Source of the DNA: Minisyncoccota bacterium | GTDB taxonomy: Bacteria > Patescibacteriota > Minisyncoccia > Phycocordibacterales > PALSA-1337 | Reading direction: 5' to 3' | Assembly: GCA_041671485.1 (NCBI GenBank) | Contig: JBAZBL010000006.1 | Span: 6,539 to 70,538, forward strand | Length of the DNA stretch: 64,000 nucleotides | Shown: positions 7,025 through 60,965 of the stretch, piece by piece | Position numbering within the stretch: the stretch's first letter is position 1 | Layout of the letters: every line of letters starts with the position of its first letter | Position numbers and translations under genes: made by a program | The notes under the pieces: generated by a model | What the model was told of the DNA's origin: nothing | The model's input: only the letters and a program-made list of their open reading frames with translations | Database searches by the model: none

Positions 7025-8457
7025 TTAGAATATATAATAAAGGAGATATTCTCGTTTCGGTTTTAGTCTTTTCTGCTATAGCAATTACTATCACTATAGG
7101 ACTTGTAAATTGGGGTTCTATATTATTGAAAAGTGTTCGTACTTTGGCAGATAAAGGACAAGCATTACAAATTGCCGAGGCCGGAATTGATTATTATCGA
7201 TGGCATCTAGCTCATATGCCAGAAGATTTCATGGATGGTACAGGACAAACTGGACCATATATTCATGAATTCAAAGATAAAGATGGCAATCTAATAGGTA
7301 CATATACTCTTACTATAACTCCTCCATCAATCGGTTCAACTGTTGTAACTATTGTCTCCAAAGGAGCGCTCAATTCAAATCCGAATATTACAAGAAGTAT
7401 CAAAGCTATATTGGCAATACCTTCTTGGGCTCAATATGCTAGTGTAGCAAATGATAATATGCGTTTTGGTTCTGGCACAGTAATTTATGGACCAGTACAT
7501 TCGAATAAAGGTATTCATTTCGATGGTATAACATATGGATTGATGTCGAGTGCTCTCACAACATATGTAGATCCCGATTATGGAGCCAATCGTTGGGCCG
7601 TTTATACGCTTACTAGTCCTTCTGATCCAAACCCTCCAACACCACTACCTTTGAAACCAAATATATTTACTGCAGGCCGTAAAATATCTGTACCAGCCGT
7701 TGATTTTACTGGGCTTACTGCCAATCTGGCTCAATTGAGAACTTTGGCCCAATCAAATGGTATTTATTTGAGTCAATCTCAATACAAAGGGAAATCAGCG
7801 CTAGGTTATCATATTACACTCAAAACCAATGATACTTTCGATGTTCGTGTAGTAACTGCTATAAATAATCCACCAAACAGTAGTTGTTGGAATCTTCTCA
7901 ATCAAAATCAGTGGAGTACATGGAGTATCAAAACCGAGCAATCAGCAGTCAACTATCCAATACCTACAAATGGTATTATCTTTGTGGAAGATAATGTTTG
8001 GGTAGACGGACAGATAAATACTGCAAGATTGACCATAGCAGCTGGGAAATTGCCAGATCCAGGAGCATCAAAATGGTCTAATATCATAATTAATAATGAT
8101 ATTTTGTATACAAATCATGATGGTAATGATGTGATCGGTCTTATTGCTCAAGGAGATGTAAATATCGGTCTTTCTAGTGCAAATAGTCTCGATATTGACG
8201 CAGCTCTTGTTGCACAAAATGGTCGTGTAGGGAGGAATTATTATTCATATTATTGCGGTTCTTCTTATATTCGATCAGATATAAATCTGTATGGCATGAT
8301 CGCTACAAATCAGCGATATGGTTTTGCATATACAGACGATACTGGTTATCGTGATAGGAATATATCTTATGATCCAAATCTCCTATATAGTCCACCACCG
8401 TCATTTCCACTCACATCGAGCTATTATTCTACATTATCTTGGCAAGAAATTAACTAG
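7021..8457 (+). CDS. PilX-like minor pilin / pilus-associated protein with N-terminal TM helix
   Basis: 478 aa. Hydrophobic N-terminus ILVSVLVFSAIAITITIGLV. Last gene of the pilB-pilC-pseudopilin operon. Confidence 0.5.
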   Translation: MIRIYNKGDILVSVLVFSAIAITITIGLVNWGSILLKSVRTLADKGQALQIAEAGIDYYRWHLAHMPEDFMDGTGQTGPYIHEFKDKDGNLIGTYTLTITPPSIGSTVVTIVSKGALNSNPNITRSIKAILAIPSWAQYASVANDNMRFGSGTVIYGPVHSNKGIHFDGITYGLMSSALTTYVDPDYGANRWAVYTLTSPSDPNPPTPLPLKPNIFTAGRKISVPAVDFTGLTANLAQLRTLAQSNGIYLSQSQYKGKSALGYHITLKTNDTFDVRVVTAINNPPNSSCWNLLNQNQWSTWSIKTEQSAVNYPIPTNGIIFVEDNVWVDGQINTARLTIAAGKLPDPGASKWSNIIINNDILYTNHDGNDVIGLIAQGDVNIGLSSANSLDIDAALVAQNGRVGRNYYSYYCGSSYIRSDINLYGMIATNQRYGFAYTDDTGYRDRNISYDPNLLYSPPPSFPLTSSYYSTLSWQEIN

Positions 8458-8503
8458 CTTATTGCTAACTGACGATATATTGTGATTATGCTAAAATGTC
8501 CCT

Positions 8504-9268: not shown

Positions 9269-10398
9269 AATTTATCAAAGAAATTGAACACCTAGAAGGT
9301 GTGAAAGTACTTGTCCGCGTTGACTTCAATGTACCAATAAAAAATGGCATTGTTACAGAAGATCTACGTATCCGATCTGCATTAGGAACGATAGACTTTC
9401 TCACTTCAAAGGGTGCAAAAGTTATCCTCATCAGTCATATTGAAGTTTTGGATGGAGAAGATAATTCTCTAAAACCCATTGCAGAACGTCTCATTGATCT
9501 AGGAGAAAAAGTTGATTTTATACCAAATATTCGTGAAGCATATGACTTTATAGAAAATCATATGAAAAATGGTGAATGTATTCTCTTGGAAAATCTCCGT
9601 AAATTTGATGGTGAAAAGACAAATGAAGAGAAGTTTGCAAAAGAATTGGCGTCTCTAGGTGACATATTTGTAAATGAGGCCTTCCCAGCATGTCACAGAG
9701 AGCATGCTTCTATAGTTAGTGTGCCAAAATATTTACCAAGTTATGCAGGCCTACAGCTCGAAAAGGAAATTGCCAATCTATCACTCGCTTTCAATCCAGC
9801 ACATCCATTCCTTTTCATATTGGGAGGTGCAAAATTTGAGACAAAATTATCACTATTAGAAAGATTCATTACAGTTGCCGACAAAATATTTATAGGGGGT
9901 GCTTTGGCAAATGATTTCTTCAAAGCAAAGGGGTATGAGATAGGGCATTCTGTTGTATCAAAGGGTAATTTTGACTTATCTCCTTTTATAGGCAATACAA
10001 AGATAATGATTCCTACAGACGTAATGACAGAAAAAGGCGAGTATAAAGCATTAGATGGATTGGATAAGGATGATAAGATCGTAGATATTGGCCCAAAAAC
10101 TTTGGCTCTTTTGGAAGCAGAAGTAAATATAGCCAAATTTGTTTTGTGGAATGGTCCACTTGGTATATATGAAAAAGGATTTGATGGACCATCTATAGAA
10201 TTGGCAAAGACAATGGCAAATTTATCTTCTTCTGGTGCTACATCAATAGTAGGTGGAGGTGATACTATTGCTACGATAGAATCTCAAAATATTCAAGATA
10301 AATTTACTTTTCTTTCAACTGGAGGTGGTGCAATGCTTGAATTTTTGGCAAAGGGGAGTTTGCCTGGGATTGATGCTTTGAATAATTCAGATAAATAA
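9265..10398 (+). CDS. pgk: Phosphoglycerate kinase
   Basis: 377 aa. RVDFNVP N-terminus and conserved nucleotide-binding region. Start overlaps the tpiA stop (ATGA), consistent with translational coupling. Confidence 0.9.
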   Translation: MKFIKEIEHLEGVKVLVRVDFNVPIKNGIVTEDLRIRSALGTIDFLTSKGAKVILISHIEVLDGEDNSLKPIAERLIDLGEKVDFIPNIREAYDFIENHMKNGECILLENLRKFDGEKTNEEKFAKELASLGDIFVNEAFPACHREHASIVSVPKYLPSYAGLQLEKEIANLSLAFNPAHPFLFILGGAKFETKLSLLERFITVADKIFIGGALANDFFKAKGYEIGHSVVSKGNFDLSPFIGNTKIMIPTDVMTEKGEYKALDGLDKDDKIVDIGPKTLALLEAEVNIAKFVLWNGPLGIYEKGFDGPSIELAKTMANLSSSGATSIVGGGDTIATIESQNIQDKFTFLSTGGGAMLEFLAKGSLPGIDALNNSDK

Positions 10399-42101: not shown

Positions 42102-42179
42102 TACCTAGAGACTTTCTTTATGCCCCATACGTGGTAAATCATCAAAACCTAGTTTCGGCTAGGTTTTGTGTTTGGGGGA

Positions 42180-42234
42180 GTTTACGCAGGGTAGACCTGC
42201 GGGGGAATCCCCCGCAGGTCTACCCTGCGTAAAC
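42180..42234. repeat. REP doublet (REPIN-like) next to the RAYT gene
   Basis: gtttacgcagggtagacctgcg ggggaatcccc cgcaggtctaccctgcgtaaac, a 55-nt perfect palindrome. Preceded by the pilA terminator aaaacctagtttcggctaggtttt. Confidence 0.8.
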
Positions 42235-42792
42235 TCTAATAATACTACCTTGAGGTCTATTTTCTCCCAAATAGTCTTTATAACTAGAGAATTCGTATTT
42301 CTTTGAGTATTCTATTGCTTGAGCCAAATATTCAGGTTTGGCAGTTTTCATGAGATCTGGTTCATCTATACTATACGGATTCAAGTGTATGTATTGGATC
42401 AAATATCTCAAATATTCATCATTATCAATATGTTTTTCTTTGTATTGTCCTTGAAATATTGTTCCAGAGTGGTCATATTTTCTGTTGTAATACATTGCGT
42501 ATGATGTGCACAGTTTACGAATAAATCTAGTAATACCACCATCAGTTTTTTCTTCTACTCCTATATGAAAATGGTTTGGCATAAGACAATAGGCAAATAT
42601 GTCGACAATTATATCTCGATTATATTGAAACATGTCTAATGGCTTTATACTACGCAGGTCTACCCTGCGTGTATCATTTGCTGTGTAGAGTAGAGTTATA
42701 AATCTTTCATAATCACCCCTATCTAAAAATATTGGTGCTTTATGGGCTCCACGATTGTATATATGATATTTTTCTCCTAATATATGTGACAT
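42220..42792 (-). CDS. IS200/IS605-family Y1 (HUH) transposase of the REP-associated type (RAYT, TnpA_REP-like)
   Basis: 190 aa from ATG 42792 (MSHILGEKYHIYNRG...). HUH motif NHFHIG, catalytic Tyr region YLRYLIQYIHLNP. Flanked by REP hairpins. The ORF-track start at 42828 translates a REP. Confidence 0.8.
   Translation of the reverse strand: MSHILGEKYHIYNRGAHKAPIFLDRGDYERFITLLYTANDTRRVDLRSIKPLDMFQYNRDIIVDIFAYCLMPNHFHIGVEEKTDGGITRFIRKLCTSYAMYYNRKYDHSGTIFQGQYKEKHIDNDEYLRYLIQYIHLNPYSIDEPDLMKTAKPEYLAQAIEYSKKYEFSSYKDYLGENRPQGSIIRVYAG
42653..42669. repeat. Single REP unit inside the RAYT coding region, in frame
   Basis: cgcaggtctaccctgcg encodes part of ANDTRRVDLRSIKP between the first conserved block and the HUH motif. 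Confidence 0.6.
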
Positions 42793-42797
42793 TAAAT

Positions 42798-42916
42798 TTA
42801 CGCAGGGTAGACCTGCGTAAACAACCATATCACACCGAGATAAAATCCTGATAAAATTTTGCTGAAGAAATGATAAAGTTTTTATCCGAGGGTAGGCCTC
42901 GGAGGCCTACCCTCGG
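42798..42916 (-). repeat. Composite repeat element, copy 3 (reverse strand): GC hairpin ccgagggtaggcctc g gaggcctaccctcgg, 42-nt ATTTTATC motif, TGaTATGGT box, REP; directly upstream of the RAYT start
   Basis: 42-nt motif at 42837-42878 (reverse strand). REP cgcagggtagacctgcg at 42801-42817. 31-nt perfect GC palindrome at 42886-42916. Confidence 0.7.
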
Positions 42917-44247: not shown

Positions 44248-44297
44248 GTCCCGCAGGGTAGACCTGCGGGGGATCACGCAGGTCTACCCTGCGGGAC
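44248..44297. repeat. REP doublet (REPIN-like) between pilD and the pseudopilin operon
   Basis: gtcccgcagggtagacctgcg ggggatca cgcaggtctaccctgcgggac. Confidence 0.8.
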
Positions 44298-44320
44298 AGG
44301 AAAAGATGTATAATATAATC

Positions 44321-46663: not shown

Positions 46664-48727
46664 ATGAAAACAGTAGAGAAAAAAGCTACAAAAGAGGCAA
46701 AAGAGCGCCTAAATAAGCTCAAAGAGACGATAGAATACCATCGTTACAATTATCATGTACTCGATAAGCAAGAGATTTCAGCATCGGCACTTGATAGTCT
46801 AAAACATGAATTGGCAATCCTCGAGACAAAATATCCAGAATTGATTACCACTGATTCACCATCACAGAGAGTAGGAGGGGAACCACTTCCAGAATTCAAG
46901 AAGGTAAAACACGTCATACCACAATGGTCTTTAAATGATGCCTTTGCTCCAGAAGAAATACAAGAATTTGATGCAAGAGTAAAAAGGTTCTTGATACAAG
47001 GTGGTATAAATAATCCCAAGCCAACATATACTTGTGAGCATAAGATAGATGGACTAAAAATTGTACTTAATTATGAAAATGGTGTACTAAAGCAAGTTGC
47101 AACTAGAGGAGATGGCATTGTCGGTGAAGATGTTACAAATAATGTGAGAACCATAGATTCTGTACCATTGAAGCTCAAAAAACCATTGTCAATCATCGTT
47201 GAAGGAGAAGCGTGGATGGCAAAGAGTACACTTAAAAGCTTGAATAAAGAACGTATCAAAGATAGAGAAGAGCCATTTGCGAATCCTAGGAATCTAGCGG
47301 CTGGTTCTATTCGCCAACTGGATCCGAAAGTAGTGAGAGAAAGGGGGTTAGATTCATTTATTTATGATATTGCGAGGATTATACCACCGCCTGCGACGGT
47401 CGAGGCGGCTACGATCTTGCCGTCAACACAATTGGCTGAGTTAAATCTTTTAAAGTCGCTTGGTTTCAAGGTAAATAAGCACTATAAACATTGCAACAAT
47501 ATTGAAGAAGTCATTGCATATTGGCGAGAATGGCAAAATAAAATGCCAAAAGAGGATTATTGGGCTGATGGTATTGTAGTAAAAGTAGATGAATTGGAAT
47601 ACCAAAAAATTCTAGGATTTACAGGCAAAGCACCACGTTGGTGTATAGCATTCAAATTCCCAAGTGAAGAAGTTACGACTATTCTAGAAGATATTGTCTT
47701 TCAAGTTGGGCGTATGGGCACTATTACACCAGTTGCTATATTGAAGCCAGTGTCTATAGGAGGTTCAACAGTTTCTAGAGCAACATTACACAATGAAGAT
47801 GAAATAAAACGTCTTGATGTTCACATTGGTGATACTGTCATACTCAAGAAAGCAGGAGATGTAATACCAGATATAGTTGGTATTGTGAAAGAGATGAGGA
47901 AGAGCAATTCTAGACCATTCAAATGGCCTACACATATAGCAGGATGTGGTGGGGATGGAAAGATAGAGAGAGTACCCGGTGAATCGGCATGGAGATGTGT
48001 AAATAAAAATTCTTTTGAACAAGAAAAGCGTAAACTTTACTATTTCACTTCTAAACACTGCTTTGATATTGACGGACTAGGTCCAAAGATCATAGATCTT
48101 TTGCTAGAACACAATCTTATTGCAAGCTCAGATGATATATTTACACTAGAAAAGGGCGATCTCGATAGTTTGCCACGTTTTGCGGATAAATCTGCAGACA
48201 ATCTGATAAAAGCTATTGAAAAAGCAAAGAAGGTGACATTGCCAAGATTTTTGGCCTCACTTTCTATCCCTCAACTAGGAGAAGAGACATCATATGATAT
48301 AGCCAAGAATTTTGGAACAATTGAAAATATTCAAGATGCAACAAAAGAAAAGTTTGAATCAATCTATGGTGTTGGGCCAGTAGTTGCCAAGTCTATTGCA
48401 GATTGGTTCAAAAAAAGTGAAAACCGTAAATTAGTTAGCAATCTACTGAAATACGTGAAGATAATTCCCGATGAATCAAATGCAAATGAAGCCAGTCAAA
48501 TTTTCAACGGTAAATCTTTTGTATTTACTGGTACTTTGCCAACATTGGAGCGTGAAGAAGCACAGCAATTAGTAAGAAAAAATGGAGGGAATGTATCTAG
48601 TTCCGTATCAAGCAAGACTTCATTTGTAGTTGCTGGCGATGATGCTGGGTCAAAGTTAGATAAAGCGAGGAGTTTGGGGGTGAATATAATAGATGAGAGT
48701 GAGTTCCTAAGGCTTTGCGCAGGGTAG
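46664..48727 (+). CDS. ligA: NAD-dependent DNA ligase
   Basis: Adenylation motif KIDG (CEHKIDGLK), OB fold, Zn-finger region, HhH and BRCT domains. Stop codon TAG lies inside a REP unit. Confidence 0.95.
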   Translation: MKTVEKKATKEAKERLNKLKETIEYHRYNYHVLDKQEISASALDSLKHELAILETKYPELITTDSPSQRVGGEPLPEFKKVKHVIPQWSLNDAFAPEEIQEFDARVKRFLIQGGINNPKPTYTCEHKIDGLKIVLNYENGVLKQVATRGDGIVGEDVTNNVRTIDSVPLKLKKPLSIIVEGEAWMAKSTLKSLNKERIKDREEPFANPRNLAAGSIRQLDPKVVRERGLDSFIYDIARIIPPPATVEAATILPSTQLAELNLLKSLGFKVNKHYKHCNNIEEVIAYWREWQNKMPKEDYWADGIVVKVDELEYQKILGFTGKAPRWCIAFKFPSEEVTTILEDIVFQVGRMGTITPVAILKPVSIGGSTVSRATLHNEDEIKRLDVHIGDTVILKKAGDVIPDIVGIVKEMRKSNSRPFKWPTHIAGCGGDGKIERVPGESAWRCVNKNSFEQEKRKLYYFTSKHCFDIDGLGPKIIDLLLEHNLIASSDDIFTLEKGDLDSLPRFADKSADNLIKAIEKAKKVTLPRFLASLSIPQLGEETSYDIAKNFGTIENIQDATKEKFESIYGVGPVVAKSIADWFKKSENRKLVSNLLKYVKIIPDESNANEASQIFNGKSFVFTGTLPTLEREEAQQLVRKNGGNVSSSVSSKTSFVVAGDDAGSKLDKARSLGVNIIDESEFLRLCAG

Positions 48728-48757
48728 ACCTGCGTGAACACGCAGGTCTACCCTGCG
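48718..48757. repeat. REP doublet overlapping the ligA stop codon
   Basis: cgcagggtagacctgcg tgaaca cgcaggtctaccctgcg. The ligA stop is TAG 48725-48727. Confidence 0.8.
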
Positions 48758-48784
48758 CAACCTCAAATGTGATAAACTCACAAT

Positions 48785-49083: not shown

Positions 49084-49158
49084 TGTGTCATCCTCGCGAA
49101 AGCGAGGATCCACAATGTTATGAAAGACATGGATCCTCGCTTTCGCGAGGATGACACA
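49084..49158. repeat. 75-nt palindromic double-hairpin element filling the gatC-gatA spacer
   Basis: gtgtcatcctcgcgaaagcgaggatcca ... tggatcctcgctttcgcgaggatgacac. Each arm contains its own cctcgc gaaa gcgagg hairpin. Confidence 0.6.
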
Positions 49159-50630: not shown

Positions 50631-51218
50631 ATGGAATCAGAACTAAAATTACCTGCAATAGACTATGCACCATTCATCCAATCTACTAGTAAAACCATAG
50701 TCAATAGTTATCCATCTGCTGTCGAGACAGCAAAAGATATTGGAGGTATATTGATAGGAATATGTATACCATTATCAGTTTTTTTTCTTATAGTTATAGT
50801 CTATTGTGTCGAACAATTGAAAAGGATTAGGAATAAAGAAGCAGAAATGTTCGATCTCAAAGTTGTGCCGATATACGAAAAGAATACAGGGTCAAATCCT
50901 GGCATGGTAAAGCGTTGGGAAAGTGCAAAGATCCATATTGCTTCAAATAATCCAAATGATTGGCGTCAAGCAATAATTGATGCAGATATTATCTTGGATG
51001 AAATCTTGACTCAAATGGGCTATCAGGGCCAAACAGTCGGAGACAAGTTGAAGAGGGTTGCAAAAGGAGATTTCAATACTCTAAATGATGCTTGGGAAGC
51101 ACATAAAGTGAGAAATATGATTGCCCATGAAGGATCTAGTTTTTCCTTGAATGAAAACGATGCAAAAAGCGCTTTCAGTGCCTATAAAAGGGTATTTGAA
51201 GAGTTTTATTATGTGTAG
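50631..51218 (+). CDS. Membrane-anchored protein with a C-terminal HEPN-like (DUF4145-type) domain
   Basis: N-terminal TM helix ILIGICIPLSVFFLIVIVY. C-terminus AWEAHKVRNMIAHEG fits the Rx4H HEPN motif of the DUF4145 family. Confidence 0.45.
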   Translation: MESELKLPAIDYAPFIQSTSKTIVNSYPSAVETAKDIGGILIGICIPLSVFFLIVIVYCVEQLKRIRNKEAEMFDLKVVPIYEKNTGSNPGMVKRWESAKIHIASNNPNDWRQAIIDADIILDEILTQMGYQGQTVGDKLKRVAKGDFNTLNDAWEAHKVRNMIAHEGSSFSLNENDAKSAFSAYKRVFEEFYYV

Positions 51219-51268
51219 TTAGTAAAAATATCCTTGAAATTCTGATGGATTTATGATAATTTTTTTCA

Positions 51269-51625
51269 ATGGAACCGAAATTAGATCCAGTAGAGTATTG
51301 TAAATTATTAAGTTCAACTATTCGAACCGCTTATAATGCTATAGGTCGGGTATCCTGCCAGATTTTGCAGAAGAATGTGGTTTTTAACGCAAAGGGATTT
51401 CACCTTCCCCTAGCTGTTGCAGTTGTGAGAAATGCAACAGCGATTGATGAAGAACGAGAGGTGATAATTTCTAAAAAAAGAAAAAAAGGCGCAAAGAGAG
51501 TTAAGGCGAAACAGTATGCATTGGTTGCCACGGTTGGTAGAAATAATCCTGTTAGGGTGAGAGTAATTGTTATGGAAGTAGAAAATAGTCAAAATCCTAT
51601 CTTTTGGAGCATAATGAGGGACTAA
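51269..51625 (+). CDS. Hypothetical protein with a Lys/Arg-rich segment
   Basis: 118-aa ORF followed by the hairpin terminator aaaaaccacgatcatttgtggttttttt (about 51627-51655). Confidence 0.4.
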   Translation: MEPKLDPVEYCKLLSSTIRTAYNAIGRVSCQILQKNVVFNAKGFHLPLAVAVVRNATAIDEEREVIISKKRKKGAKRVKAKQYALVATVGRNNPVRVRVIVMEVENSQNPIFWSIMRD

Positions 51626-52095
51626 AAAAACCACGATCATTTGTGGTTTTTTTAGTTGTGCCCGCTTTTCGACTTAAGATATATCTTTTGCCGAACAAGG
51701 CTTACGCCCACGGACACACTCATAGATTACACTATCACACGACATTTGTCAATACCGAAGTGAAAACTACAAGTGTACCCACAAGCTACATAAAGTATAC
51801 CTTAATAGTGAAGAAAAATTAAGGAAATTATTACTGTCAACTGTGGATAGTGATGATATACTGCGTACACGAAAATGTAAAGGGTTTAATATTTTGTTGC
51901 ACAGGTGAGACAGGATTGGAACCAGATTATGGAAAGCATTAGGGGATTGCATGAACTTTCCATTGAATCTCATGTGTAGTTTTTGAATTGTAATCAAATA
52001 GCGTAATGGTGCTTGATTTATAATGTCATATATGTTTGAATGGTTATCCACCCTACGGACTATGTCTATATGTCAGGGAGTGGTAAACTCATCAT

Positions 52096-52440
52096 ATGAA
52101 TATTCAAAGGCCTAAAAATACTAAAGAGCGTGGTACCATCGAATGTCTCGTATACAAAGATGGTGCTACTTATATTGGTGTCTGTCTAACTTTTGATATT
52201 GTAGAGGAAGGTAGTAACCCAACTGAACTGATGAAAAGTATTAAGGAAGCTGCCGAACTGCATCTTGAAACGGTAATACGGGAAAATCTATCTGATGACC
52301 TTTTGAATCGGTATGCTCCTGAAGACTACTGGAAAAAGTATTTTGCAGTTGCAAGAGAAATTGAGAAACCTTCAATAACAAGCACAAACAATCTAACTGT
52401 ATCCCCTTACTATCGTTCTCTAACGGCTCAGATGGCATAA
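52096..52440 (+). CDS. hicB: HicB-family antitoxin
   Basis: YIGVCLTFDIVEEGSNPTELMKSIKEAAELHLE matches the HicB/UPF0150 N-domain. GGGAG Shine-Dalgarno upstream. Confidence 0.65.
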   Translation: MNIQRPKNTKERGTIECLVYKDGATYIGVCLTFDIVEEGSNPTELMKSIKEAAELHLETVIRENLSDDLLNRYAPEDYWKKYFAVAREIEKPSITSTNNLTVSPYYRSLTAQMA

Positions 52441-52441
52441 A

Positions 52442-52681
52442 ATGGCAAAAGGTCTGAATAACTGGTGTTATAAAGACATCTGTGATTTTTTGAAAGAACA
52501 TGGGTTTGAGTTTCTTGAATATCGTAAGGGGTCTCATGAGGCTTGGATTAATCGTACTACCAATGCAGTCGTGGAAATAAACGTCCATGGCTCGAAGAGT
52601 TTTGCTATCCGAACCCTTGAGACAATGATTCGTCAATCTAAAATTGATAAAAAAGAGTGGCGCGACTGGACTACATATTAG
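52442..52681 (+). CDS. hicA: HicA-family mRNA interferase toxin
   Basis: DICDFLKEHGFEFLEYRKGSHEAW...VVEINVHGSK is the HicA/YcfA fold signature. Starts 2 nt after hicB. Confidence 0.65.
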   Translation: MAKGLNNWCYKDICDFLKEHGFEFLEYRKGSHEAWINRTTNAVVEINVHGSKSFAIRTLETMIRQSKIDKKEWRDWTTY

Positions 52682-52766
52682 GAGTTATCTTATGTTGATT
52701 TTGGTATCCTACCTTTACGCTATATGCACTATTACTCAAAATATATGGTAAAATATAGCTATCTAT

Positions 52767-53168
52767 ATGGCTATGACACTAGAAAAAGCAATAACTTTGG
52801 TAGGAAATTATAGGAAAGCGGGTTTTAAGGCTGGCCAAGCTCTTCTAGATACGGGCTATAGTGAAAGCATGGCTCTGAAGAAGTCTGGGGTCACTCTAGA
52901 TCGTGCATATAAGGCTATTGCCAAACATGACCTAGAAACGGCTCTTGAGAGTCCAAATCCGGCACAAGAGTTGTTCCGATTCATTAAGATGAGTGAGTAT
53001 GACATTGTTAGGGAGTACAGAGAGATCATTATGCAGAATGATAACTTTGCCGTAAAACTAAAAGCCTTGACACCTCTGTTGTCGGAGATGGGTATACAGT
53101 GGAATAACGATGCGGGTAAAACCTCAGCTGTTCCGACACTTAATCTTACTGTTTGCAAATTATTATAA
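52767..53168 (+). CDS. Small HTH protein resembling phage terminase small subunits / phage regulators
   Basis: GNYRKAGFKAGQALLDTGYSESMALKKSG resembles the Terminase_2 N-terminal HTH (..AAIRAGYS..TA...G). Weak. Confidence 0.3.
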   Translation: MAMTLEKAITLVGNYRKAGFKAGQALLDTGYSESMALKKSGVTLDRAYKAIAKHDLETALESPNPAQELFRFIKMSEYDIVREYREIIMQNDNFAVKLKALTPLLSEMGIQWNNDAGKTSAVPTLNLTVCKLL

Positions 53169-53278
53169 CTCCAAATAAGAGGGGTGGGGGTAGTCGGTTT
53201 TGATATTTGATATGTGAACGCAAGAAGGGGGTCAGGCGCAAAATCTTCAAAAATAATCAGTTTCCAAGATCACGTCAA

Positions 53279-54073
53279 TCAAATTGAAAACTTTGGGTTA
53301 ATGAGGTACTTCTTGAACGAATTATACAGCCTTAGAACCTCATCCTTTGGTACGCCAGCATCCTCGATAGTCTTTAGTTGAAAGTTACCTTCATCATCGG
53401 CATCGCTAACCCATGCCCGTAATATTCGATCTGGTTTATCTGCAAATAACAGGAAAATATCATAACCCTGACCGATATGTTTGAAGATGGCAAAAGGAGT
53501 AAATCGACTTCTATAGTATGCCTCATCAAAACCATCTAGTCCAAATGTAGTGTCAGAAACAATATGGCATTGTCTCGTCATGTTTTCTGAAAAAATAGAA
53601 ATTTCCTTTCCACTAATATAATCATCAAAGGTTTTTCGTAAAAAAATTACCGGTGGTCTTTTGATTGACTCTTCTTCAAAACCATCTAGATCATCGGCAG
53701 ACAGCTCCACGGCATGATCCGGTATAACAGCTTCTCCGTTAGTTAACTCTTGCAATTTTGTTGGGAAGGATCGAGTGGCTAGGGTTGATGGTGCATCGAA
53801 TTCAAGATTAGGATCAACAGAACTCCCAAACTTACTGATTATTTCCCTCTGCCTATTTTGGAAAGCCAAATAGACGGTAAATTTACATGCTTCATTATTT
53901 AGGCACTCTTCATGTGATAATTTAGAGTAGTCCCTGTCTAGATTAACCTCTTCGCAGGCGGCTTCAGGAATTGATGTTTGATTAGTTATATCTCTTGTGC
54001 CTAAAACAAAATAAGCTCCCACTGCAAAAACAACTATAACAATGGTTATCAAAATACATGGTTTGTTTATCAT
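53279..54073 (-). CDS. Hypothetical membrane-anchored protein (264 aa)
   Basis: N-terminal TM helix ILITIVIVVFAVGAYFVL. No known motif. Last gene of a four-gene minus-strand cassette. Confidence 0.45.
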   Translation of the reverse strand: MINKPCILITIVIVVFAVGAYFVLGTRDITNQTSIPEAACEEVNLDRDYSKLSHEECLNNEACKFTVYLAFQNRQREIISKFGSSVDPNLEFDAPSTLATRSFPTKLQELTNGEAVIPDHAVELSADDLDGFEEESIKRPPVIFLRKTFDDYISGKEISIFSENMTRQCHIVSDTTFGLDGFDEAYYRSRFTPFAIFKHIGQGYDIFLLFADKPDRILRAWVSDADDEGNFQLKTIEDAGVPKDEVLRLYNSFKKYLINPKFSI

Positions 54074-54103
54074 AATGATACTGTTTTACTAATCTTCATA
54101 AGA

Positions 54104-54523
54104 TTATTTCATTACCTTCGGTTTCCAGTCAATAATTGGTTTTTCAGTATTCCATCTATCTAGTCCCTCAAGCTCAGGCATATAGTTTATATCGGTAATC
54201 ATTTTGTATGCTCCTTTTTTACAAATCATTACCCATAATCTTGGCATGAAGATGGAAAAAACCTTTGCATAACTTTTCAATTGTTTTTTACTCCAGAGAA
54301 TCAATATTTCTTGATCGGCAACCCTTTTTCTGAAAGCTTCCGAAAGATTGTGGAAGTCTACTTTATGGGTGATGAATCCAGTTATTTCCATCGGTAATTT
54401 ATTGCATTCTAAAACAACCGACGCGTAGGGGAGAAGATTATTTCCACTTGAAGATAATGGAGTAAAACTAATTACTCTACAAATTTCACCATCAATTTTT
54501 TTCCAATCTTTATTTTTTAACAT
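54104..54523 (-). CDS. Hypothetical protein (139 aa)
   Basis: ORF in tandem, with tight spacing, to neighbouring genes in the cassette. Confidence 0.45.
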   Translation of the reverse strand: MLKNKDWKKIDGEICRVISFTPLSSSGNNLLPYASVVLECNKLPMEITGFITHKVDFHNLSEAFRKRVADQEILILWSKKQLKSYAKVFSIFMPRLWVMICKKGAYKMITDINYMPELEGLDRWNTEKPIIDWKPKVMK

Positions 54524-54545
54524 GTTATTATAGTAGATTTCAATT

Positions 54546-54737
54546 CTAGGAATTTTTCATTGATGAAGATAAGGAGACTACAATAAACTCCGATATTCCT
54601 CCATAAACAAACAGTTTTAACCCAAATTCACGTAGAAAGTCTGAAGACCATATTGGTGCGGAGGTTTCTGCAAAGGCAATACCAGCAACGATGACAATCA
54701 CTAGAATAAAGACTTGCTTTGAAGTAAATGTTTTCAT
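54546..54737 (-). CDS. Small secreted/membrane peptide (63 aa)
   Basis: Signal-peptide-like N-terminus VFILVIVIVAGIAFAETSA. Confidence 0.35.
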   Translation of the reverse strand: MKTFTSKQVFILVIVIVAGIAFAETSAPIWSSDFLREFGLKLFVYGGISEFIVVSLSSSMKNS

Positions 54738-54806
54738 GTTATATTGGCTATAGTTATCGAGGGTATAGCGAGTATCAATATAACTCCAGACAGGAATGAC
54801 AGTATT

Positions 54807-55127
54807 TTACTTGTTTTCATGTTTCACATTAATTAAAAAATTAATCAGCTCATCTTTTGTCTTAAATCTTTTTATGATATCTACTGCAATTTGCTCTATC
54901 GGGCTACCAATAAAGTTTGTTCTTAATACAGGAAAACTTTTTTCAATAAAAGAAGCATTATCACATCTCCAAATAAGTCGCGGAAATATTATTAGGAAGT
55001 GGTCGTATATCTTTATTCCGTTAGATGAATTGCCAATGGTCACTTTCTCTCTACTGTCTAAAAGTACTTCAAATCCACTCGGGTATGTTGATGTACTGTC
55101 TTGAAATTTATGAATTATTCTACCCAT
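54807..55127 (-). CDS. Hypothetical protein (106 aa)
   Basis: First gene of the minus-strand cassette, divergent from ORF 55377. Confidence 0.4.
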   Translation of the reverse strand: MGRIIHKFQDSTSTYPSGFEVLLDSREKVTIGNSSNGIKIYDHFLIIFPRLIWRCDNASFIEKSFPVLRTNFIGSPIEQIAVDIIKRFKTKDELINFLINVKHENK

Positions 55128-55139
55128 TTTAATATTTAA

Positions 55140-55275
55140 GCAAAAAGCCCATCACGGGTAGAGTCCGAAGACTCTCATACAAGTTTCCCTGTATGGCGGA
55201 TTACGCGACCCCATGATGGGTTCTTTATGCGTAATCCGACTTCCTTTCGCCATGCCCCAAAAAGAGGTTTAGGCT
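55140..55275. other. About 135-nt densely structured non-coding region (candidate ncRNA or replication/recombination site)
   Basis: Nested stems gagtc cgaa gactc, ggattacgc...gcgtaatcc, cccatgatggg and atggcg...cgccat. Lies between the divergent cassette and ORF 55377. Confidence 0.3.
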
Positions 55276-55376
55276 ATTTCTAAATATTCAGTTGTAAGTT
55301 AAGCATACAACTCCGTTTAGATATTGTCGAGGTTAATCTAGTGTGTAAAATCTTTGAAAGGTGCTAGCTTATAAGT

Positions 55377-56027
55377 ATGAGAACTGCTGCTTCTGTTTCA
55401 GGTCGTGTCAAGACTCGATCTCGCAAGATAGCTCAAAAATTGATTCTTGATCATCTTATTATTTTGAATAGTAATAGACTTTGGAAATCTTGTTTCTATC
55501 GTAATAGGATAGGTGTGAAAGGTTGGCGAGCTAGAAGAATTGTAAGAATACCGTCACCAAAATCATATAATTGGTTGAAGACCTATTTGGAAAATACTAA
55601 AGGAGAAATAATAACATTATCTGAAGGTGGATATTCTTTTGTACCTATTCCAGAGGGATATCTCATAATTAATGATAGAGGTGAAAACTTTAATATAAAA
55701 AGATTCAAGGCAAGAAAAAATTTCAGTTTGTTTTTATACAGACTTTTTGCTCTTTCTGTTCTTCGGCCAGCTTATGAAGAGTATGAAAAAAAGGAAGCAA
55801 GAAAGAATAGCTACGAAAGGATAGTTGCAAAATCAAAAGAATGCTCGGCTAAGGAGACTCTATCATTTGGAAATACAAGAATTACTGTAGTGCACACAAA
55901 CAAAATGAAAAGAGTTGAGCCTAAAATCATAGGTATCGAAAGTCAATTTGTTAAAAAATTTTGGGATGGAAGCTATGAAGATTATAAAAAATTTAGACTG
56001 AAAGTGAGGAAAGAAGGTCTGATTTGA
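55377..56027 (+). CDS. Hypothetical basic protein (216 aa)
   Basis: Arg/Lys-rich N-terminus. No recognisable domain. Upstream of the replication gene. Confidence 0.45.
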   Translation: MRTAASVSGRVKTRSRKIAQKLILDHLIILNSNRLWKSCFYRNRIGVKGWRARRIVRIPSPKSYNWLKTYLENTKGEIITLSEGGYSFVPIPEGYLIINDRGENFNIKRFKARKNFSLFLYRLFALSVLRPAYEEYEKKEARKNSYERIVAKSKECSAKETLSFGNTRITVVHTNKMKRVEPKIIGIESQFVKKFWDGSYEDYKKFRLKVRKEGLI

Positions 56028-56183
56028 GAGTGTCCAAATGTTTCCCTGTTGCTGATATTATCACGCGTAAAATTATTATAGCGTGTTTTTTTGTTTAGGA
56101 AAAATTGCTGCAAAAGTCCATTGTGCGCTGGGCTGGTGTAGAAGCAGCAATCTCTACCAGTCAAGCGCAGAGTGGATTTTTTT

Positions 56184-56324
56184 ATGCTAACCATCAATGA
56201 ATGTAAAAAATATCTCAGTTCAGAGATTATAGAGAAGACAACTGACGAAAATATTTTACAAATTCGTGATGCGTTATACAAGCTGGCCGAGCTTGCATTA
56301 GAAACATTAAATAACAAAAAATAA
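56184..56324 (+). CDS. Small ORF (46 aa), possible regulator/excisionase-like helper
   Basis: MLTINECKKYLSSEIIEKTTDENILQIRDALYKLAELALETLNNKK. Ends 2 nt before the primase-polymerase gene. Not in the ORF track because it is shorter than 60 aa. Confidence 0.25.
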   Translation: MLTINECKKYLSSEIIEKTTDENILQIRDALYKLAELALETLNNKK

Positions 56325-56325
56325 T

Positions 56326-58158
56326 ATGCAAAAATCAGATGTCAATTTATTAGAGATAGCGTTACAGTATTTAAGTTTTGGTCTATCTATAATACCTGTA
56401 AACGGAAAACAGCCGTGCGTAAAGTGGACAGAATACCAAACAAGGAAACCGACTATAGCAGAAATAACTGAATGGTTTTCACATCCGGATGTGACTGGAA
56501 TAGGGATAATTACAGGTTTGATTTCAGGGATTGGCGTTCTGGATATTGATAATGGATCTGACACATCAAGTCTTCAGTTACCGCCTACAGTTGCCGTTAA
56601 AACTGGAGGTGATGGTCAACATCACTACTATAGGTATCCCTTCAATACGGTCATCAGAAATACAACTGGATTACTACCACATATAGATTTCAGAGGTGAC
56701 GGGGGTTATGTTGTCGCGCCACCATCGATGCACCAATCTGGAAATAAATATGAATGGTTGTTGGACTTTAAGCGCGAGGATTTGGCTGATATTCCTGATT
56801 GGCTTCTAACCCGCTTGGTTGGTGAAAAGAGTCATCCGAACATCACGGATATATTAAGTGGCGTCTCTCAAGGGACTAGAAATGAGTCGGCGACAGTGAT
56901 TGTTGGGAAACTGATTCATCATTTGCCATCCTACGAATGGGAAACTTTAGCATGGCCTTACCTTAGATGGTGGAATGATCGAAATCAACCACCACTAGGT
57001 ATGAAGGAGCTTCGTGTTACATATGAATCTATTATTGGCAGAGAAAATAAGAAAGAGCAAAAGCAAGAACAGACACTAAAGATATTACAGTGGAAAGATT
57101 TTGATCAAGTGAAATTTCCCGAAGCGAAGTGGTTAATAAAAGACCTAATACCGACAGGAACTGTCACTATTATTGCCGCCCCATCGGGGGAAAAGAAAAC
57201 ATGGGTGGGTATGGAGATGTCTCGTTGTATAGCTCTCGGTATACCCTTTATCAACCACTTCGAAACGAAAAAGGGTAATGTATTATATATAGAGCAAGAA
57301 ACATCCCAACGCCTAATTCAAGATCGAGGTAGAAAGTTAGGATTCAATCTTGTGAATGATGGTATTTTCCTTCTTAGCCAAGATTCACTTAATTTGAATG
57401 AAGATCGTTCGATACAGTTGTTACATGAGTTTATCGAGAGAAATCATATAGAGTTTGTGGTTATCGATACGCTTAGAAGTGTTGCGGGTGGGATAAAAGA
57501 AGAAAAAGCAGAGGAAATAAGGATGTTCTTTAATCGTCTAAAGCCGTGGAAGGATAAGGGTATAAGCTATTTAGTCCTTGATCACTGTAGAAAGCCTGCA
57601 AGATTTGAGAGTACACAGGTGCCTAAAAAGGAGCAACTACTTGGAAGCCAAGACAAAACAGCCTCCGTTGAGGTGCTTCACATGATAAGAAGTGAGGAAA
57701 AAAGTAATGAGATAATGTTCTACCCAAAGAAATCTAAAGTTGCAAGGGAAATATCCCCGTTCAAAATTTTGATGTTAGATGAAATCACCGAACACGGTGA
57801 GGTTGTGAGGTTGACATATGGCGGAGAGATTGAAGAAAAAAAGTTGAAAGCAGAGGAGGCGGAAGGCATGATAAAAGCATATCTACTGGAATCCAATGAG
57901 CATAGAACATCTAAAGAGATTCAGGAGGCTCTGGACGGAGAAGCTGGGAAGACTGCCATCGAAGATGCGCTTAAAAAAATGCGAGAAGACAAGGAGAATA
58001 TTGTCCATCATGAAAAAGTTGGTCAAGCGTATAAATATTGGATACCAAAAGATAAACCAGATGAGCTTGATATATTTGATGAGGTTCCTAAGTCTGATTT
58101 AGGAAGTCCGCAGACGCTGCTATTAGAAGCTTCAACTGAGCCACAAATTGCTGCCTAG
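56326..58158 (+). CDS. Bifunctional primase-polymerase (Prim-Pol) N-domain fused to a P-loop RecA/DnaB-like ATPase (mobile-element replication protein)
   Basis: Prim-Pol motifs GIGIITGL..GIGVLDIDNGSD and DFRGDGGYVVAPPS. Walker A AAPSGEKKTW. AAA_25-like region VVIDTL. Confidence 0.8.
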   Translation: MQKSDVNLLEIALQYLSFGLSIIPVNGKQPCVKWTEYQTRKPTIAEITEWFSHPDVTGIGIITGLISGIGVLDIDNGSDTSSLQLPPTVAVKTGGDGQHHYYRYPFNTVIRNTTGLLPHIDFRGDGGYVVAPPSMHQSGNKYEWLLDFKREDLADIPDWLLTRLVGEKSHPNITDILSGVSQGTRNESATVIVGKLIHHLPSYEWETLAWPYLRWWNDRNQPPLGMKELRVTYESIIGRENKKEQKQEQTLKILQWKDFDQVKFPEAKWLIKDLIPTGTVTIIAAPSGEKKTWVGMEMSRCIALGIPFINHFETKKGNVLYIEQETSQRLIQDRGRKLGFNLVNDGIFLLSQDSLNLNEDRSIQLLHEFIERNHIEFVVIDTLRSVAGGIKEEKAEEIRMFFNRLKPWKDKGISYLVLDHCRKPARFESTQVPKKEQLLGSQDKTASVEVLHMIRSEEKSNEIMFYPKKSKVAREISPFKILMLDEITEHGEVVRLTYGGEIEEKKLKAEEAEGMIKAYLLESNEHRTSKEIQEALDGEAGKTAIEDALKKMREDKENIVHHEKVGQAYKYWIPKDKPDELDIFDEVPKSDLGSPQTLLLEASTEPQIAA

Positions 58159-58309
58159 TTTCCTAGTACATATATATGTTATGATTACAATGCTACACAA
58201 GGGATTAGGGACGTTATTTATTTTAATTGAGTCCAAAAGCGGGGTAACAGAACTCTCTTGTGTAGCAACTTGAGACGTCCACTGTTACCCCACTTTTGTA
58301 ATTAAAAAT

Positions 58310-59851
58310 ATGAAAAAAGGAATTATATATGTTCGAGTATCATCGAACGAACAAGTACAAGGTACAAGTCTCGATAATCAAGAGAGGGCTTGTTTGGAAT
58401 ATGCGGAGAAAAATAATATTGAGGTGGTAAAGATTTATATTGAGAAAGGGGAATCGGCAACTGCCGCCAATCGTACCGAATTTCTGAAGGCACTGGAGTA
58501 TTGTCGAATACATAGTAAAGAGGTGGAGTCTTTCATTGTTTGGAAGATCGATCGCTTCGCCCGTAATACCACAGACCATTTTGCAGTCCGCGCTAAACTA
58601 ACTCAGTACGGTGTTACTCTCCAATCAGTTACTGAACCAATCACAAATGATCCTAGCGGTAAACTGATGGAGACACTTCTTGCTGGATATGCAGAATTTG
58701 AAAACGATATACGTAAGCAGAGGTGTATTGGTGGCATGCAAGGCAGATTACGTGAGGGAATCTGGTGCTGGTCGCCTCCAATAGGGTATACAAACTCTAT
58801 GAAGATGAAAGACAGAAAGAAAACCTTACCGGATGTTCCGGATGAAGAAAGATTCTACCTGATTCAAAAGGGATTAAAACTATATAAAGCCGGCAATCAC
58901 ACTATTACAGCTCTTGCCCAAGAGAGTAGTAAATGGGGACTTAAAACTCGAACTGGTAGGCCAATGAGAAAACAGTTATGGGATACTATTCTCACCAATA
59001 AATTCTATGCTGGTATCCTCGTCGATCCGTGGAGCCTTGAAGAACAACAAGGACAACATAAGCCTATGATTACTTTAGAAGATTTCAATCACATCCAGAT
59101 GATAAAAAAGAATTTGTCCAACAACGCCACCGCTTCACGACTCTCTACCAATCCCGATTTTCCACTTCGCCGTTTTGTGTTATGTGAATGTCATCATCTC
59201 TATACCGCCTCGTGGAGTACCGGCCGAAGTAAAAAATATGCCTCTTACCACTGTCACGGCAAGCAATGCGTACATTTTGGTCACACTGTTGCCAAAGATA
59301 CGCTCGAAGATGAATTCTATAAGCTTTTACAAAAGGTAGCTCCACAGACTAAGTTCCTTAAACTGTTTGAACGGATCGTTATAGAGACCTATAAAAACCA
59401 ACATACTCTTGTTAAGCAGGAAAAGGATCACTATGAGCGAAATCTATCCAAGTTGGAAGCACGTAAGAAAGAATTGATGGAAATGAGAATAAGCCGTGAG
59501 ATTTCAAAGGAAGACTATAAAGATCTTAAAGATGCTTTGGATAATCAGATTACCAGTCTCCATATCTCAAGAAATGAAGCTCAGATAGAAGAATTTGATA
59601 TGGAGATCGCTATAGCTCACACTACGAAGCTGATCGGTGATGTTGCCAATCAATGGAAGCTTATGAGTCCGATTCAGAAGCAAAAACTTCAGAAATTGGT
59701 GCTACCACAAGGGATCACCTACCAAAAATCGACCGGTACATTTGGAACCGCCATTCTGTCGCCTGTATTCAAGCTTAATGAGACATTTACGGCTATGCCG
59801 TCCGAACTTGTTGCGGGGGTCGGAATCGAACCGACAATCTTCAGGTTATGA
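58310..59851 (+). CDS. Large serine recombinase (phage-integrase-type resolvase/invertase family)
   Basis: Catalytic N-domain IYVRVSSNEQ...DRFARN. Recombinase domain. Zinc ribbon CECHH...YHCHGKQC. Coiled-coil C-terminus. The last 41 nt overlap tRNA-fMet on the opposite strand. Confidence 0.85.
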   Translation: MKKGIIYVRVSSNEQVQGTSLDNQERACLEYAEKNNIEVVKIYIEKGESATAANRTEFLKALEYCRIHSKEVESFIVWKIDRFARNTTDHFAVRAKLTQYGVTLQSVTEPITNDPSGKLMETLLAGYAEFENDIRKQRCIGGMQGRLREGIWCWSPPIGYTNSMKMKDRKKTLPDVPDEERFYLIQKGLKLYKAGNHTITALAQESSKWGLKTRTGRPMRKQLWDTILTNKFYAGILVDPWSLEEQQGQHKPMITLEDFNHIQMIKKNLSNNATASRLSTNPDFPLRRFVLCECHHLYTASWSTGRSKKYASYHCHGKQCVHFGHTVAKDTLEDEFYKLLQKVAPQTKFLKLFERIVIETYKNQHTLVKQEKDHYERNLSKLEARKKELMEMRISREISKEDYKDLKDALDNQITSLHISRNEAQIEEFDMEIAIAHTTKLIGDVANQWKLMSPIQKQKLQKLVLPQGITYQKSTGTFGTAILSPVFKLNETFTAMPSELVAGVGIEPTIFRL

Positions 59852-59882
59852 GCCTGACGAGCTACCGTTACTCTACCCCGCG
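59811..59882 (-). tRNA. Initiator tRNA-fMet (anticodon CAT)
   Basis: Cloverleaf with a C1·A72 mismatch and an A11:U24 pair, both initiator hallmarks. Anticodon loop CUCAUAA. T-arm GTCGG TTCGATT CCGAC. Close to E. coli tRNA-fMet. Confidence 0.85.
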
Positions 59883-59984: not shown

Positions 59985-60058
59985 GCCGGCGTAGCTCAGG
60001 TAGTTAGAGCATAGCACTCATAAAGCTAAGGTCGCAGGTGCAAGTCCTGCCGCCGGCA
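59985..60058 (+). tRNA. tRNA with anticodon CAT (elongator Met or lysidine-modified Ile2)
   Basis: Acceptor GCCGGCG/CGCCGGC. Anticodon loop CUCAUAA. One A·A mismatch at 31-39. Confidence 0.7.
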
Positions 60059-60281: not shown

Positions 60282-60965
60282 ATGCCAATATACAAAAAGG
60301 TTAATAAAGATTTTTTCAAAGTATGGACTCCAAAGATGTCATATATACTGGGATTCTTTGCTGCTGACGGTTATATGACTCTAAACAAAAGAGGTGCTTA
60401 TTTTTGGAATATTCAAATTACAGACAAAAAATTATTAGAGGATATCAGACGAACAATTGGATCCAATCATAAAATCAGTGTTCGTATTGGAAAAGTGAAT
60501 GAAAGACCTTTGTATCGTTTACAGATTGGTAGCAAGAAAATGTACTATGATCTATTGGCTTTAGGATTTAATCAGGGAAAAACAAAGAGTTTGGCTGTTC
60601 CAAATGTTCCAGCAATATATTTTAGAGATTTTGTCAGAGGTTATTTTGATGGTGATGGTAATGTTTGGAGCGGACATATTCATCGCAATAGACCTAGTAA
60701 TACATTGATTATTACTGTGGTATTTACTTCCAGTTCATTTCAATTTTTATCGGAAATAAGGCGAAGATTACGATTGTTTATGATATTTAAAGGAGTTTTA
60801 AGTAAGGGGAAAGGTAATTATTATAGGTTAGTTTACAGTATTCGTGACTCTTTGAAATTACACGATTTCATGTATAATCATCCTATACTTGCAAAGGATG
60901 ACATTTTTCTTCAAAGGAAGAGAATTATATTCGAGAAGTACTTAAAGATACGAATGCGGCCGTAG
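60282..60965 (+). CDS. LAGLIDADG homing endonuclease (double-motif)
   Basis: Two LAGLIDADG motifs, LGFFAADGYM and GYFDGDGNV. The TAG stop overlaps the first 10 nt of tRNA-Asp. Confidence 0.85.
   Translation: MPIYKKVNKDFFKVWTPKMSYILGFFAADGYMTLNKRGAYFWNIQITDKKLLEDIRRTIGSNHKISVRIGKVNERPLYRLQIGSKKMYYDLLALGFNQGKTKSLAVPNVPAIYFRDFVRGYFDGDGNVWSGHIHRNRPSNTLIITVVFTSSSFQFLSEIRRRLRLFMIFKGVLSKGKGNYYRLVYSIRDSLKLHDFMYNHPILAKDDIFLQRKRIIFEKYLKIRMRP

Follow-up and report, generated by a model that had tools for sequence, protein, structure and literature searches.

A probable plasmid-like integrative element at the initiator tRNA gene of a Minisyncoccota bacterium, with an intragenic attachment site and a LOOT RNA

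We analysed a 64,000-nt stretch of DNA, hereafter the window, from a Minisyncoccota bacterium (Patescibacteriota; GenBank assembly GCA_041671485.1, contig JBAZBL010000006.1, positions 6,539 to 70,538 of the forward strand). In window coordinates, a mobile element of 7,921 bp lies at approximately 51894-59814, at the 3' end of the initiator tRNA gene. An earlier note on this DNA had proposed an integrative element at tRNA-fMet spanning 50631-59882; the insertion and its large serine recombinase (LSR), Prim-Pol/helicase and HicA genes were recovered here, within narrower limits. Other genomes carry differently loaded members of the same family at the same tRNA, and the family has two unusual features throughout: an attachment site (attP) inside the integrase gene, through which integration at tRNA-fMet yields an integrase with a swapped tail, and an obligatory LOOT RNA.

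The integrase, its displaced tail and the attachment sites

The element and its target comprise the following features, listed from left to right.

51894..51900, no strand: attL core TTGTTGC, with the host B arm on its left and the element P' arm ACAGGTGAGACAGGATTGGAACC on its right; the core at attR is identical
51896..51979, + strand: displaced native LSR tail VAQVRQDWNQIMESIRGLHELSIESHV (27 aa, then a stop), found by tblastn, in frame and on the same strand as the LSR
52096..52440, + strand: 114-aa protein directly upstream of hicA; only match phrog_12841, unknown function (E = 1.5e-4)
52442..52681, + strand: HicA toxin, 79 aa; PF07927 (E = 1e-8, 35.6 bits against a cut-off of 27) and phrog_353 'toxin' (1.2e-9)
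52767..53168, + strand: 133-aa protein, no family match
53279..55127, - strand: leftward cargo operon of four genes (open reading frames, ORFs) downstream of LOOT
54807-55127, - strand: cargo protein p106
54546-54737, - strand: cargo protein p63, hydrophobic
54104-54523, - strand: cargo protein p139
53279-54073, - strand: cargo protein p264, with an N-terminal membrane anchor
55160..55275, - strand: LOOT RNA (Rfam RF03000), 72.7 bits against a gathering score of 46.4, model positions 1-121
55377..56027, + strand: 216-aa basic backbone protein, divergent from LOOT and about 100 nt from it
56184..56324, + strand: 46-aa backbone protein, 78%, 52% and 43% identical in the related loci L085, L083 and L084
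56326..58158, + strand: 610-aa replicase, Prim-Pol (archaeo-eukaryotic primase, AEP) plus AAA_25 helicase-type ATPase; PF09250 (5.7e-32) and PF13481 (1.2e-27)
58310..59851, + strand: LSR, integrated form, 513 aa; domain and PHROG matches, homologue tails
59808..59814, no strand: attR core TTGTTGC, with the element P arm on its left and the tRNA B' arm on its right
59810..59882, - strand: tRNA-Met(CAT), the host target; ARAGORN and Rfam, and empty sites in L006 and L004

The catalytic serine domain of the LSR, which the earlier note had suggested checking by hidden Markov model (HMM) search, was found as a Resolvase domain (PF00239, E = 2.3e-34, residues 5-150) in which the motif YVRVSS (Ser 11-12) is visible, and it matched the PDB catalytic domains of TP901-1 integrase and gamma-delta resolvase. 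The Recombinase domain PF07508 scored 20.9 bits, just below the 21.1 cut-off; close homologues carry PF07508 together with PF13408. Residues 1-462 matched phrog_95 'integrase' (3e-74), and four cysteines (CEC...CHGKQC) and a coiled-coil-type match at residues 359-451 were also present. With its resolvase domain, its C-terminal recombinase/zinc-ribbon/coiled-coil part and its short att sites with a minimal core, the protein has the make-up of a serine integrase.

The LSR ORF overlaps the tRNA on the opposite strand, as had been noticed before, and ends 42 nt (not 41) inside the 3' half of the tRNA gene. Its last 13 residues, VAGVGIEPTIFRL, are encoded by antisense tRNA, and translation ends at a stop codon supplied by the CAT anticodon loop read in antisense (TTATGAG). 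Read directly, the tRNA at 59810-59882 shows an initiator-like C1xA72 mismatch, which is a typical mark of bacterial initiator tRNAs; a second, elongator-type tRNA-Met starts at 59985. At every locus retrieved, the LSR ORF ended about 42 nt inside a minus-strand tRNA-Met, and all close LSR homologues ended in ..LVAG[AV]G[IF]EP.., the translated antisense T-arm of the tRNA. Such an antisense-tRNA peptide terminated approximately 72-80 of 120 LSR homologues, and about 30 of the 120 ended instead in a native tail (V[RG]..W[NH]QI..D..) that is conserved at the protein level.

The counterpart of this native tail was found at the other end of the element, in a 450-nt stretch that had been taken as non-coding and that in fact contains attL and the displaced integrase tail. 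The remnant at 51896-51973 was 60% identical to the tail of the uninterrupted homologue P0014 (tblastn, E = 1.7e-6), and it also occurred at the left ends of six related elements (L083, L085, L102/103, L104, L112/113 and L114). When the P arm at attR was joined to the P' arm at attL, a 527-aa LSR ending in ..PSELVAQVRQDWNQIMESIRGLHELSIESHV was rebuilt, and the rebuilt LSR C-termini aligned without gaps to uninterrupted homologues. The B arm at attL and the B' arm at attR, joined in the same way, rebuilt tRNA-fMet with a new trailer, resembling the empty sites of relatives. The junction sequences (..atattTTGTTGCacagg.. at 51894 and ..gaacTTGTTGCggggg.. at 59808) together with the rebuilt arms therefore set the limits of the element at approximately 51894-59814. 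The reconstructed attP contains ..CCGTCCGAACTTGTTGCACAGGTGAGACAGGATTGG.. and the reconstructed attB contains ..GGGTTTAATATTTTGTTGCGGGGGTCGGAATCG... The attP falls within the last ~90 nt of the LSR gene. The LSR overlaps the tRNA because attP sits inside the integrase ORF, and integration therefore replaces the 27-aa native tail with 13 antisense-tRNA residues.

Mapping of the att cores, another check that had been suggested, showed that only the 7-bp core TTGTTGC is common to both window junctions (9 bp in L083 and L085), and equivalent cores were present in L083, L085, L102, L103 and L104. In antisense, the core corresponds to tRNA-fMet positions 70-73 and the three trailer bases after them; the insertion leaves the mature tRNA intact and exchanges only the 3' trailer. 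A further sequence, ATGGAACCG, common to the left regions of the window and L085, was initially suspected as the junction and was dropped when the tail remnant placed attL at 51894.

Within the P' half-site (ACAGGTGAGACAGGATTGGAACC), one block looks like the antisense T-arm found in the host half-site B' (GGGGGTCGGAATCGAACC); its distance from the core is 4-5 nt greater than that of the real T-arm in B'. Uninterrupted homologues show the same offset: their attP-like DNA is similar to the 3' half of the tRNA, with 4 nt inserted. According to the published model for serine integrases, attB has its zinc-ribbon (ZD) motif 5 bp nearer the centre than attP does (PMC3783163), and the P'/B' offset matches this rule. 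By symmetry, TG and GC are the candidate crossover dinucleotides.

Several other observations concern the tails and ends. Many native LSR tails of this family, and of the second family described below, end in -AA (..EEAA, ..KLAA, ..DKAA), reminiscent of ssrA-type C-terminal degrons (P0022, P0023, P0033, P0036, P0040, P0043, P0060, P0067, P0106, P0112-P0114, P0152, P0156, P0181, P0189, P0190 and P0202); the rebuilt tail of the window ends in ..ESHV, not -AA. The attL core of L085 is flanked by a perfect 10-nt inverted repeat (CCTGTCCTAC / GTAGGACAGG), and L085-type assemblies break or carry poly-G, poly-C or N runs just inside the left end (L085:130-290, L087:1-90).

Related elements and the LOOT RNA

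Relatives with an empty site were obtained by a GatA scan of species-representative genomes; the closest GatA matches came from uncultured Patescibacteria metagenome-assembled genomes (67-78% identity). The insertion at the gatA/tRNA-fMet locus was present only in some lineages. In L006 the empty site reads gatA, a homologue of the 195-aa protein that follows gatA in the window (p195), an 18-nt spacer and then tRNA-fMet on the minus strand, in the orientation of the window; in L004 a small NYN-like gene lies between the p195 homologue and tRNA-fMet; and in L005 the empty tRNA-fMet is inverted. The search for this locus without its insert, which the earlier note had called for, was thus successful, and the insertion does not represent an ancient island that has become fixed. 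In L084 tRNA-fMet and gatA point in the same direction, yet the element still sits at the tRNA 3' end. Relatives differ in the way tRNA-fMet points with respect to gatA or to the tRNA cluster that follows (L005, L008, L012, L014 and L084 versus the window, L004, L006, L083, L085 and L104), and the element tracks the tRNA-fMet 3' end in both orientations.

All elements of the family showed one layout: attL with the tail remnant, leftward variable cargo, LOOT, a replication module, the LSR and attR at the tRNA. The backbone order is attL, cargo, LOOT RNA (RF03000), 216-aa protein, 46-aa protein, an exchangeable replicase and the LSR. The members and the LOOT copies outside the window are as follows; L114 comes from the same metagenome as the window.

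Window element: 7.9 kb; replicase Prim-Pol plus AAA_25
L083: 11.3 kb; replicase Prim-Pol; LOOT at 6257-6376
L084: left end off the contig; replicase D5_N primase-helicase; LOOT at 1004-1121
L085: 8.9 kb; replicase DnaG-type Zn ribbon plus AAA_25; LOOT at 4280-4395
L102: attL, cargo side and LOOT seen; LOOT at 904-1013
L112: 6.7 kb; no recognisable replicase; LOOT at 8357-8474
L114: 11.3 kb; replicase Prim-Pol plus AAA_25; LOOT at 5990-6111
L111: LOOT at 4755-4867

LOOT was found in seven of the seven tRNA-fMet elements scanned, at the same position and with 63-89 bits; the window copy and seven others passed the gathering score over model positions 1-121. Between LOOT and the divergently oriented 216-aa gene there are ~80-100 nt, and the first cargo gene lies 30-50 nt downstream of LOOT. 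A conserved inverted repeat and promoter/operator-like motif precede the RNA, and an invariant short hairpin plus T5 follows it (55128-55159 in the window). LOOT was previously known only as a 'metagenomic-based' structured RNA (PMC7779021); a family formerly without a defined setting has here a fixed place in a mobile-element backbone. It was not found in four non-CPR islands (outside the Candidate Phyla Radiation, CPR) that were scanned and that carry native-tail LSR homologues. A further copy was detected on a contig from IMG/VR, where a type I restriction gene adjoins it, another LSR is nearby and a large terminase gene lies 1 kb away. In L083 (5503-6249, -), L085 (2954-4033, -) and L102 (1058-1948, +), the cargo genes that come first after LOOT code for secreted or membrane proteins, two of which have an ASWWNP..W motif after the signal peptide.

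A second LSR of 545 aa, 24% identical to that of the window, was identified in L085 (9353-10990, -), where it ends 40 nt inside tRNA-Asp (9318-9392). Most of its 120 best homologues end in an antisense-tRNA peptide (..RRDLNPQPPA) and about 20 in a native tail (..RALVDAVGT.I..); a second-family tail remnant was not found in L085. Since both LSR families split alike, an intragenic attP aimed at tRNA 3' ends seems, from these sequence comparisons, to be a recurrent design in CPR serine integrases.

Relatives of the window LSR with native tails (62-67% identical) were found in L093, L094, L096-L098, L099 and L100, within large non-CPR islands that carry type I restriction-modification, Dnd, CBASS-like, TraG/TrwB and relaxase genes; in L093 and L096, the tail-coding DNA still resembles the tRNA-fMet 3' half. 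For P0014, P0018, P0019 and P0020 no free circle was seen, and their islands lacked LOOT and a tRNA (the tRNA checked for P0014 and P0018).

Backbone, cargo and flanking genes

The 610-aa protein had been described as a Prim-Pol N-domain plus P-loop helicase, and both domains were borne out by the Pfam matches listed above. It also matched PHROG DNA primase/polymerase families, contains DID and GDGGY..PPS motifs as well as a conserved His, and thus combines a Prim-Pol/AEP domain with a P-loop ATPase. The 46-aa ORF, rightly called tightly coupled to this gene, stops 1 nt before its start; its product is a candidate recombination directionality factor or regulator. The basic 216-aa protein and the four-gene minus-strand cassette were also present as described. 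The 216-aa family is tiny and received no fold assignment; homologues were detected in L085 and L114, and in L083 and L084 its place is taken by ORFs of similar size. The spacers between the 216-aa and 46-aa genes (56112-56181) and between the Prim-Pol and LSR genes (58191-58318) contain long imperfect hairpins, one of which has 31-nt arms; the others, with arms of 14 and 37 nt, are nested. All are candidates for an origin or a regulatory site. Tandem-repeat and iteron searches for a replication origin yielded no iterons and nothing convincing beyond these intergenic hairpins.

Gene content at the position of the cargo operon differed in every related element. The GSH motif is visible in HicA, and HicA stands as half of the hicB-hicA pair first proposed. 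Its partner, the 114-aa protein encoded 1 nt away, had no match in Pfam, NCBIfam, PADLOC or PDB and gave a poor single-sequence AlphaFold2 model (pLDDT 43); its position suggests that it may be a HicB-like antitoxin. The 133-aa protein, once taken for a small helix-turn-helix or terminase-like protein, matched nothing in Pfam, PHROGs, NCBIfam or PADLOC, and the assignment as a terminase small subunit was rejected for want of a terminase match. The minus-strand cargo proteins had no match in the same four libraries. No cargo gene matched a defence model in PADLOC or NCBIfam, which leaves the supposed defence-like cargo without support beyond HicA. As stated previously, the element has no capsid, portal or tail genes; window proteins had no PHROG head or packaging match.

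To the left of the element, the 195-aa membrane-anchored HEPN-like protein p195 (50631-51218, +) carries an R-N-x-x-x-H motif, and its sole family match was weak and sub-threshold (Cas13e HEPN region, E = 0.016). A p195 homologue lies directly downstream of gatA in all relatives examined, and it adjoins gatA in L003-L006, L084 and L104 with or without an element. Because it is kept beside gatA in empty-site relatives, p195 is a host gene and not cargo. A 118-aa ORF (p118) and ~270 nt to its right also lie outside attL and hence outside the element. The left boundary proposed at 50631 was accordingly ~1.26 kb too far to the left.

The host-side stretch of 675 nt between the 195-aa gene and attL (51219-51893) holds this 118-aa ORF, which has no homologues, and a hairpin with a T-run at ~51625-51655. 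In other genomes the equivalent spot is taken up by the NYN-like gene (L004) or a PLD gene (L112), or contains nothing (L006 and L104); the stretch seems to represent either a hot spot of variation or remnants of past insertions. To the right of the element, a free-standing LAGLIDADG endonuclease-like ORF (60282-60965, +; PF14528, 2.4e-14) lies between tRNA-Met and tRNA-Asp, and it looks like a separate insertion into the tRNA cluster because the two tRNAs are only ~45 nt apart in L085. Elsewhere in the window, dispersed palindromic repeats resembling repetitive extragenic palindromes (CGCAGGGTAGACCTGCG and its complement) occur at 42178-42236, 42642-42680, 42797-42828, 44248-44304 and 48714-48768, often as back-to-back pairs in intergenic spacers, e.g., between ligA and gatC. 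The spacer between gatC and gatA contains, at 49084-49158, an inverted repeat with perfectly matching 29-nt arms and a 17-nt loop.

Interpretation, alternatives and significance

We regard LSR-mediated insertion, the boundaries given above and the intragenic attP as highly likely. The element is probably plasmid-like and self-replicating, and was integrated by its own LSR right at the 3' terminus of the host's initiator tRNA gene, where the LSR ORF runs into the antisense tRNA up to the anticodon-loop stop. In the mechanism we propose, excision would rejoin the displaced tail and yield the 527-aa LSR, perhaps with the 46-aa protein as directionality factor, and the excised circle would be replicated by the Prim-Pol/AAA_25 protein. 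The element would be stabilised by HicA together with its partner, and the tail swap, together with convergent transcription from the tRNA gene, could modulate LSR activity in the integrated state. Excision, circle replication, stabilisation by HicA and modulation by the tail swap are proposed tentatively, with an even chance at best.

Several results weigh against this reading. An exact-pattern scan of metagenome and viral contigs for the attP junction or a circle, a check the earlier note had also proposed, returned 0 matches, and a scan with a P'-only pattern found three attL sites and no attP. All assemblies with an identical GatA show the same occupied neighbourhood. The bulk composition of the element is not distinguishable from that of the host: its GC content, described earlier as visibly higher, is 38.0% versus 37.3% in the rest of the window (equal-size windows, standard deviation 0.9, maximum 38.9%), with GC at third codon positions modestly raised (33.9% versus 28.1%). 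The L112 element has no recognisable replicase, and the native-tail homologues inspected sit in large non-CPR islands, not on small circles. The L114 junctions share only GC, which, being palindromic, would not set polarity.

The empty scan for circles, the uniformly occupied contigs and the host-like composition are also what would be expected if a single past integration had left an immobilised island that neither excises nor replicates. We consider a dead relic quite improbable because the LSR, the replicase and both cores are intact, the 27-codon tail remnant has been kept open with protein-level conservation in seven independent elements, the distribution is patchy with empty sites in relatives, and cargo and replicase modules are exchanged between elements. 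A classic tRNA island would carry a copy of the tRNA 3' half, span 50631/51219-59882 and include the HEPN-like protein and p118. The 42-nt overlap of the LSR ORF with the tRNA 3' half had suggested this classic geometry, and islands with tyrosine integrases normally integrate at the 3' ends of tRNA genes (PMC7192596). Here the tRNA 3' segment is not duplicated at the distal end: probes of 43 nt and 15 nt (up to 3 mismatches) matched only the tRNA itself, and a general repeat scan detected no tRNA-derived direct repeat and nothing longer than the 7-bp core. Since the displaced tail also marks attL at 51894, and the p195 homologue stays beside gatA irrespective of the element, such an island is very improbable indeed.

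A phage satellite of the type of phage-inducible chromosomal islands (PICIs) or PICI-like elements (PLEs), excised and replicated upon helper infection and packaged in helper capsids, would share the size of these elements (6.7-11.3 kb) and their combination of integrase and primase/helicase without virion genes. PLE satellites use an LSR (PMC9638900), the IMG/VR copy of LOOT lies 1 kb from a large terminase gene, and a 123-aa protein in L083 and a 109-aa protein in L085 weakly match the terminase small subunit phrog_641 (E = 0.008 and 0.033). Yet the 133-aa protein of the window has no terminase match and nothing in the element points to packaging redirection; no capsid-redirecting, repressor or helper-sensing gene was recognisable, and IMG/VR held no close LSR relative (best match 26-28% identical). 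We therefore judge a satellite to be unlikely, and prefer the plasmid-like integrative element.

Compared with known systems, the window LSR has the same order of resolvase, recombinase, zinc-ribbon and coiled-coil parts as the phage-type serine integrases (phiC31, Bxb1, Listeria A118/LI). It also shares with them short att sites, a minimal core and a motif 4-5 bp closer to the centre in attB (PMC3783163). Unlike in these integrases, the attP of the element lies inside its integrase coding sequence, so that the protein is altered on integration, the target is a tRNA gene and the carrier is plasmid-like rather than a phage. Transfer RNA genes are also targeted by SSV-type integrases, an unrelated tyrosine family of archaeal hosts. 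In the SSV-type and pTN3-type integrases of archaeal viruses and plasmids, the att site lies in the int gene, which is interrupted on integration, as here (PMC5861418), and this arrangement has been described as unique to the SSV type (PMC5861418). The window LSR has no tyrosine recombinase fold, and it exchanges only its last 27 residues, with catalytic and DNA-binding domains intact.

Among plasmid-like elements, pSAM2, SLP1 and pMEA300 are also small (~10-17 kb), integrated in specific tRNA genes and equipped with their own replication functions (PMC2440964); they have tyrosine integrases and conjugation genes, neither of which is in the window element. PLE of Vibrio cholerae and PICI-like satellites are similarly compact, with an integrase, their own replication initiator and no virion genes (PMC9638900). 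They differ in that no helper phage, packaging-hijack gene or induction circuit was identifiable for the window element. PLE is not known to target a tRNA.

Mageeney et al. (2020) reported t(m)RNA use by 14 of 297 serine-integrase islands, as previously unreported and in need of proof (PMC7192596). In an incomplete literature set, we found neither tRNA targeting nor an intragenic attP described for serine integrases, nor any account of these CPR elements. Two divergent LSR families systematically use tRNA genes, a use that had been called unreported in 2020 (PMC7192596), and the sole analogue found for the intragenic attP is that of the unrelated SSV-type tyrosine integrases. The two natural isoforms (527 aa episomal, 513 aa integrated) bear on the role of the extreme C-terminus of LSRs in directionality. 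On the host side, the half-site is formed by the highly conserved acceptor/T-arm of tRNA-fMet, which makes these LSRs candidate tools for DNA insertion into hard-to-manipulate CPR bacteria. The LOOT orphan RNA gains a genomic context and testable roles.

More speculatively, and in our view doubtfully, CPR bacteria may host a large undescribed class of tRNA-targeting serine-integrase episomes with attP in the ORF, in which two C-terminal isoforms, aided by convergent tRNA transcription, would switch directionality, stability or expression, and LOOT would serve as a dedicated regulatory or replication RNA. The elements described here form a compact, modular mobile-element family in genomes otherwise considered streamlined.

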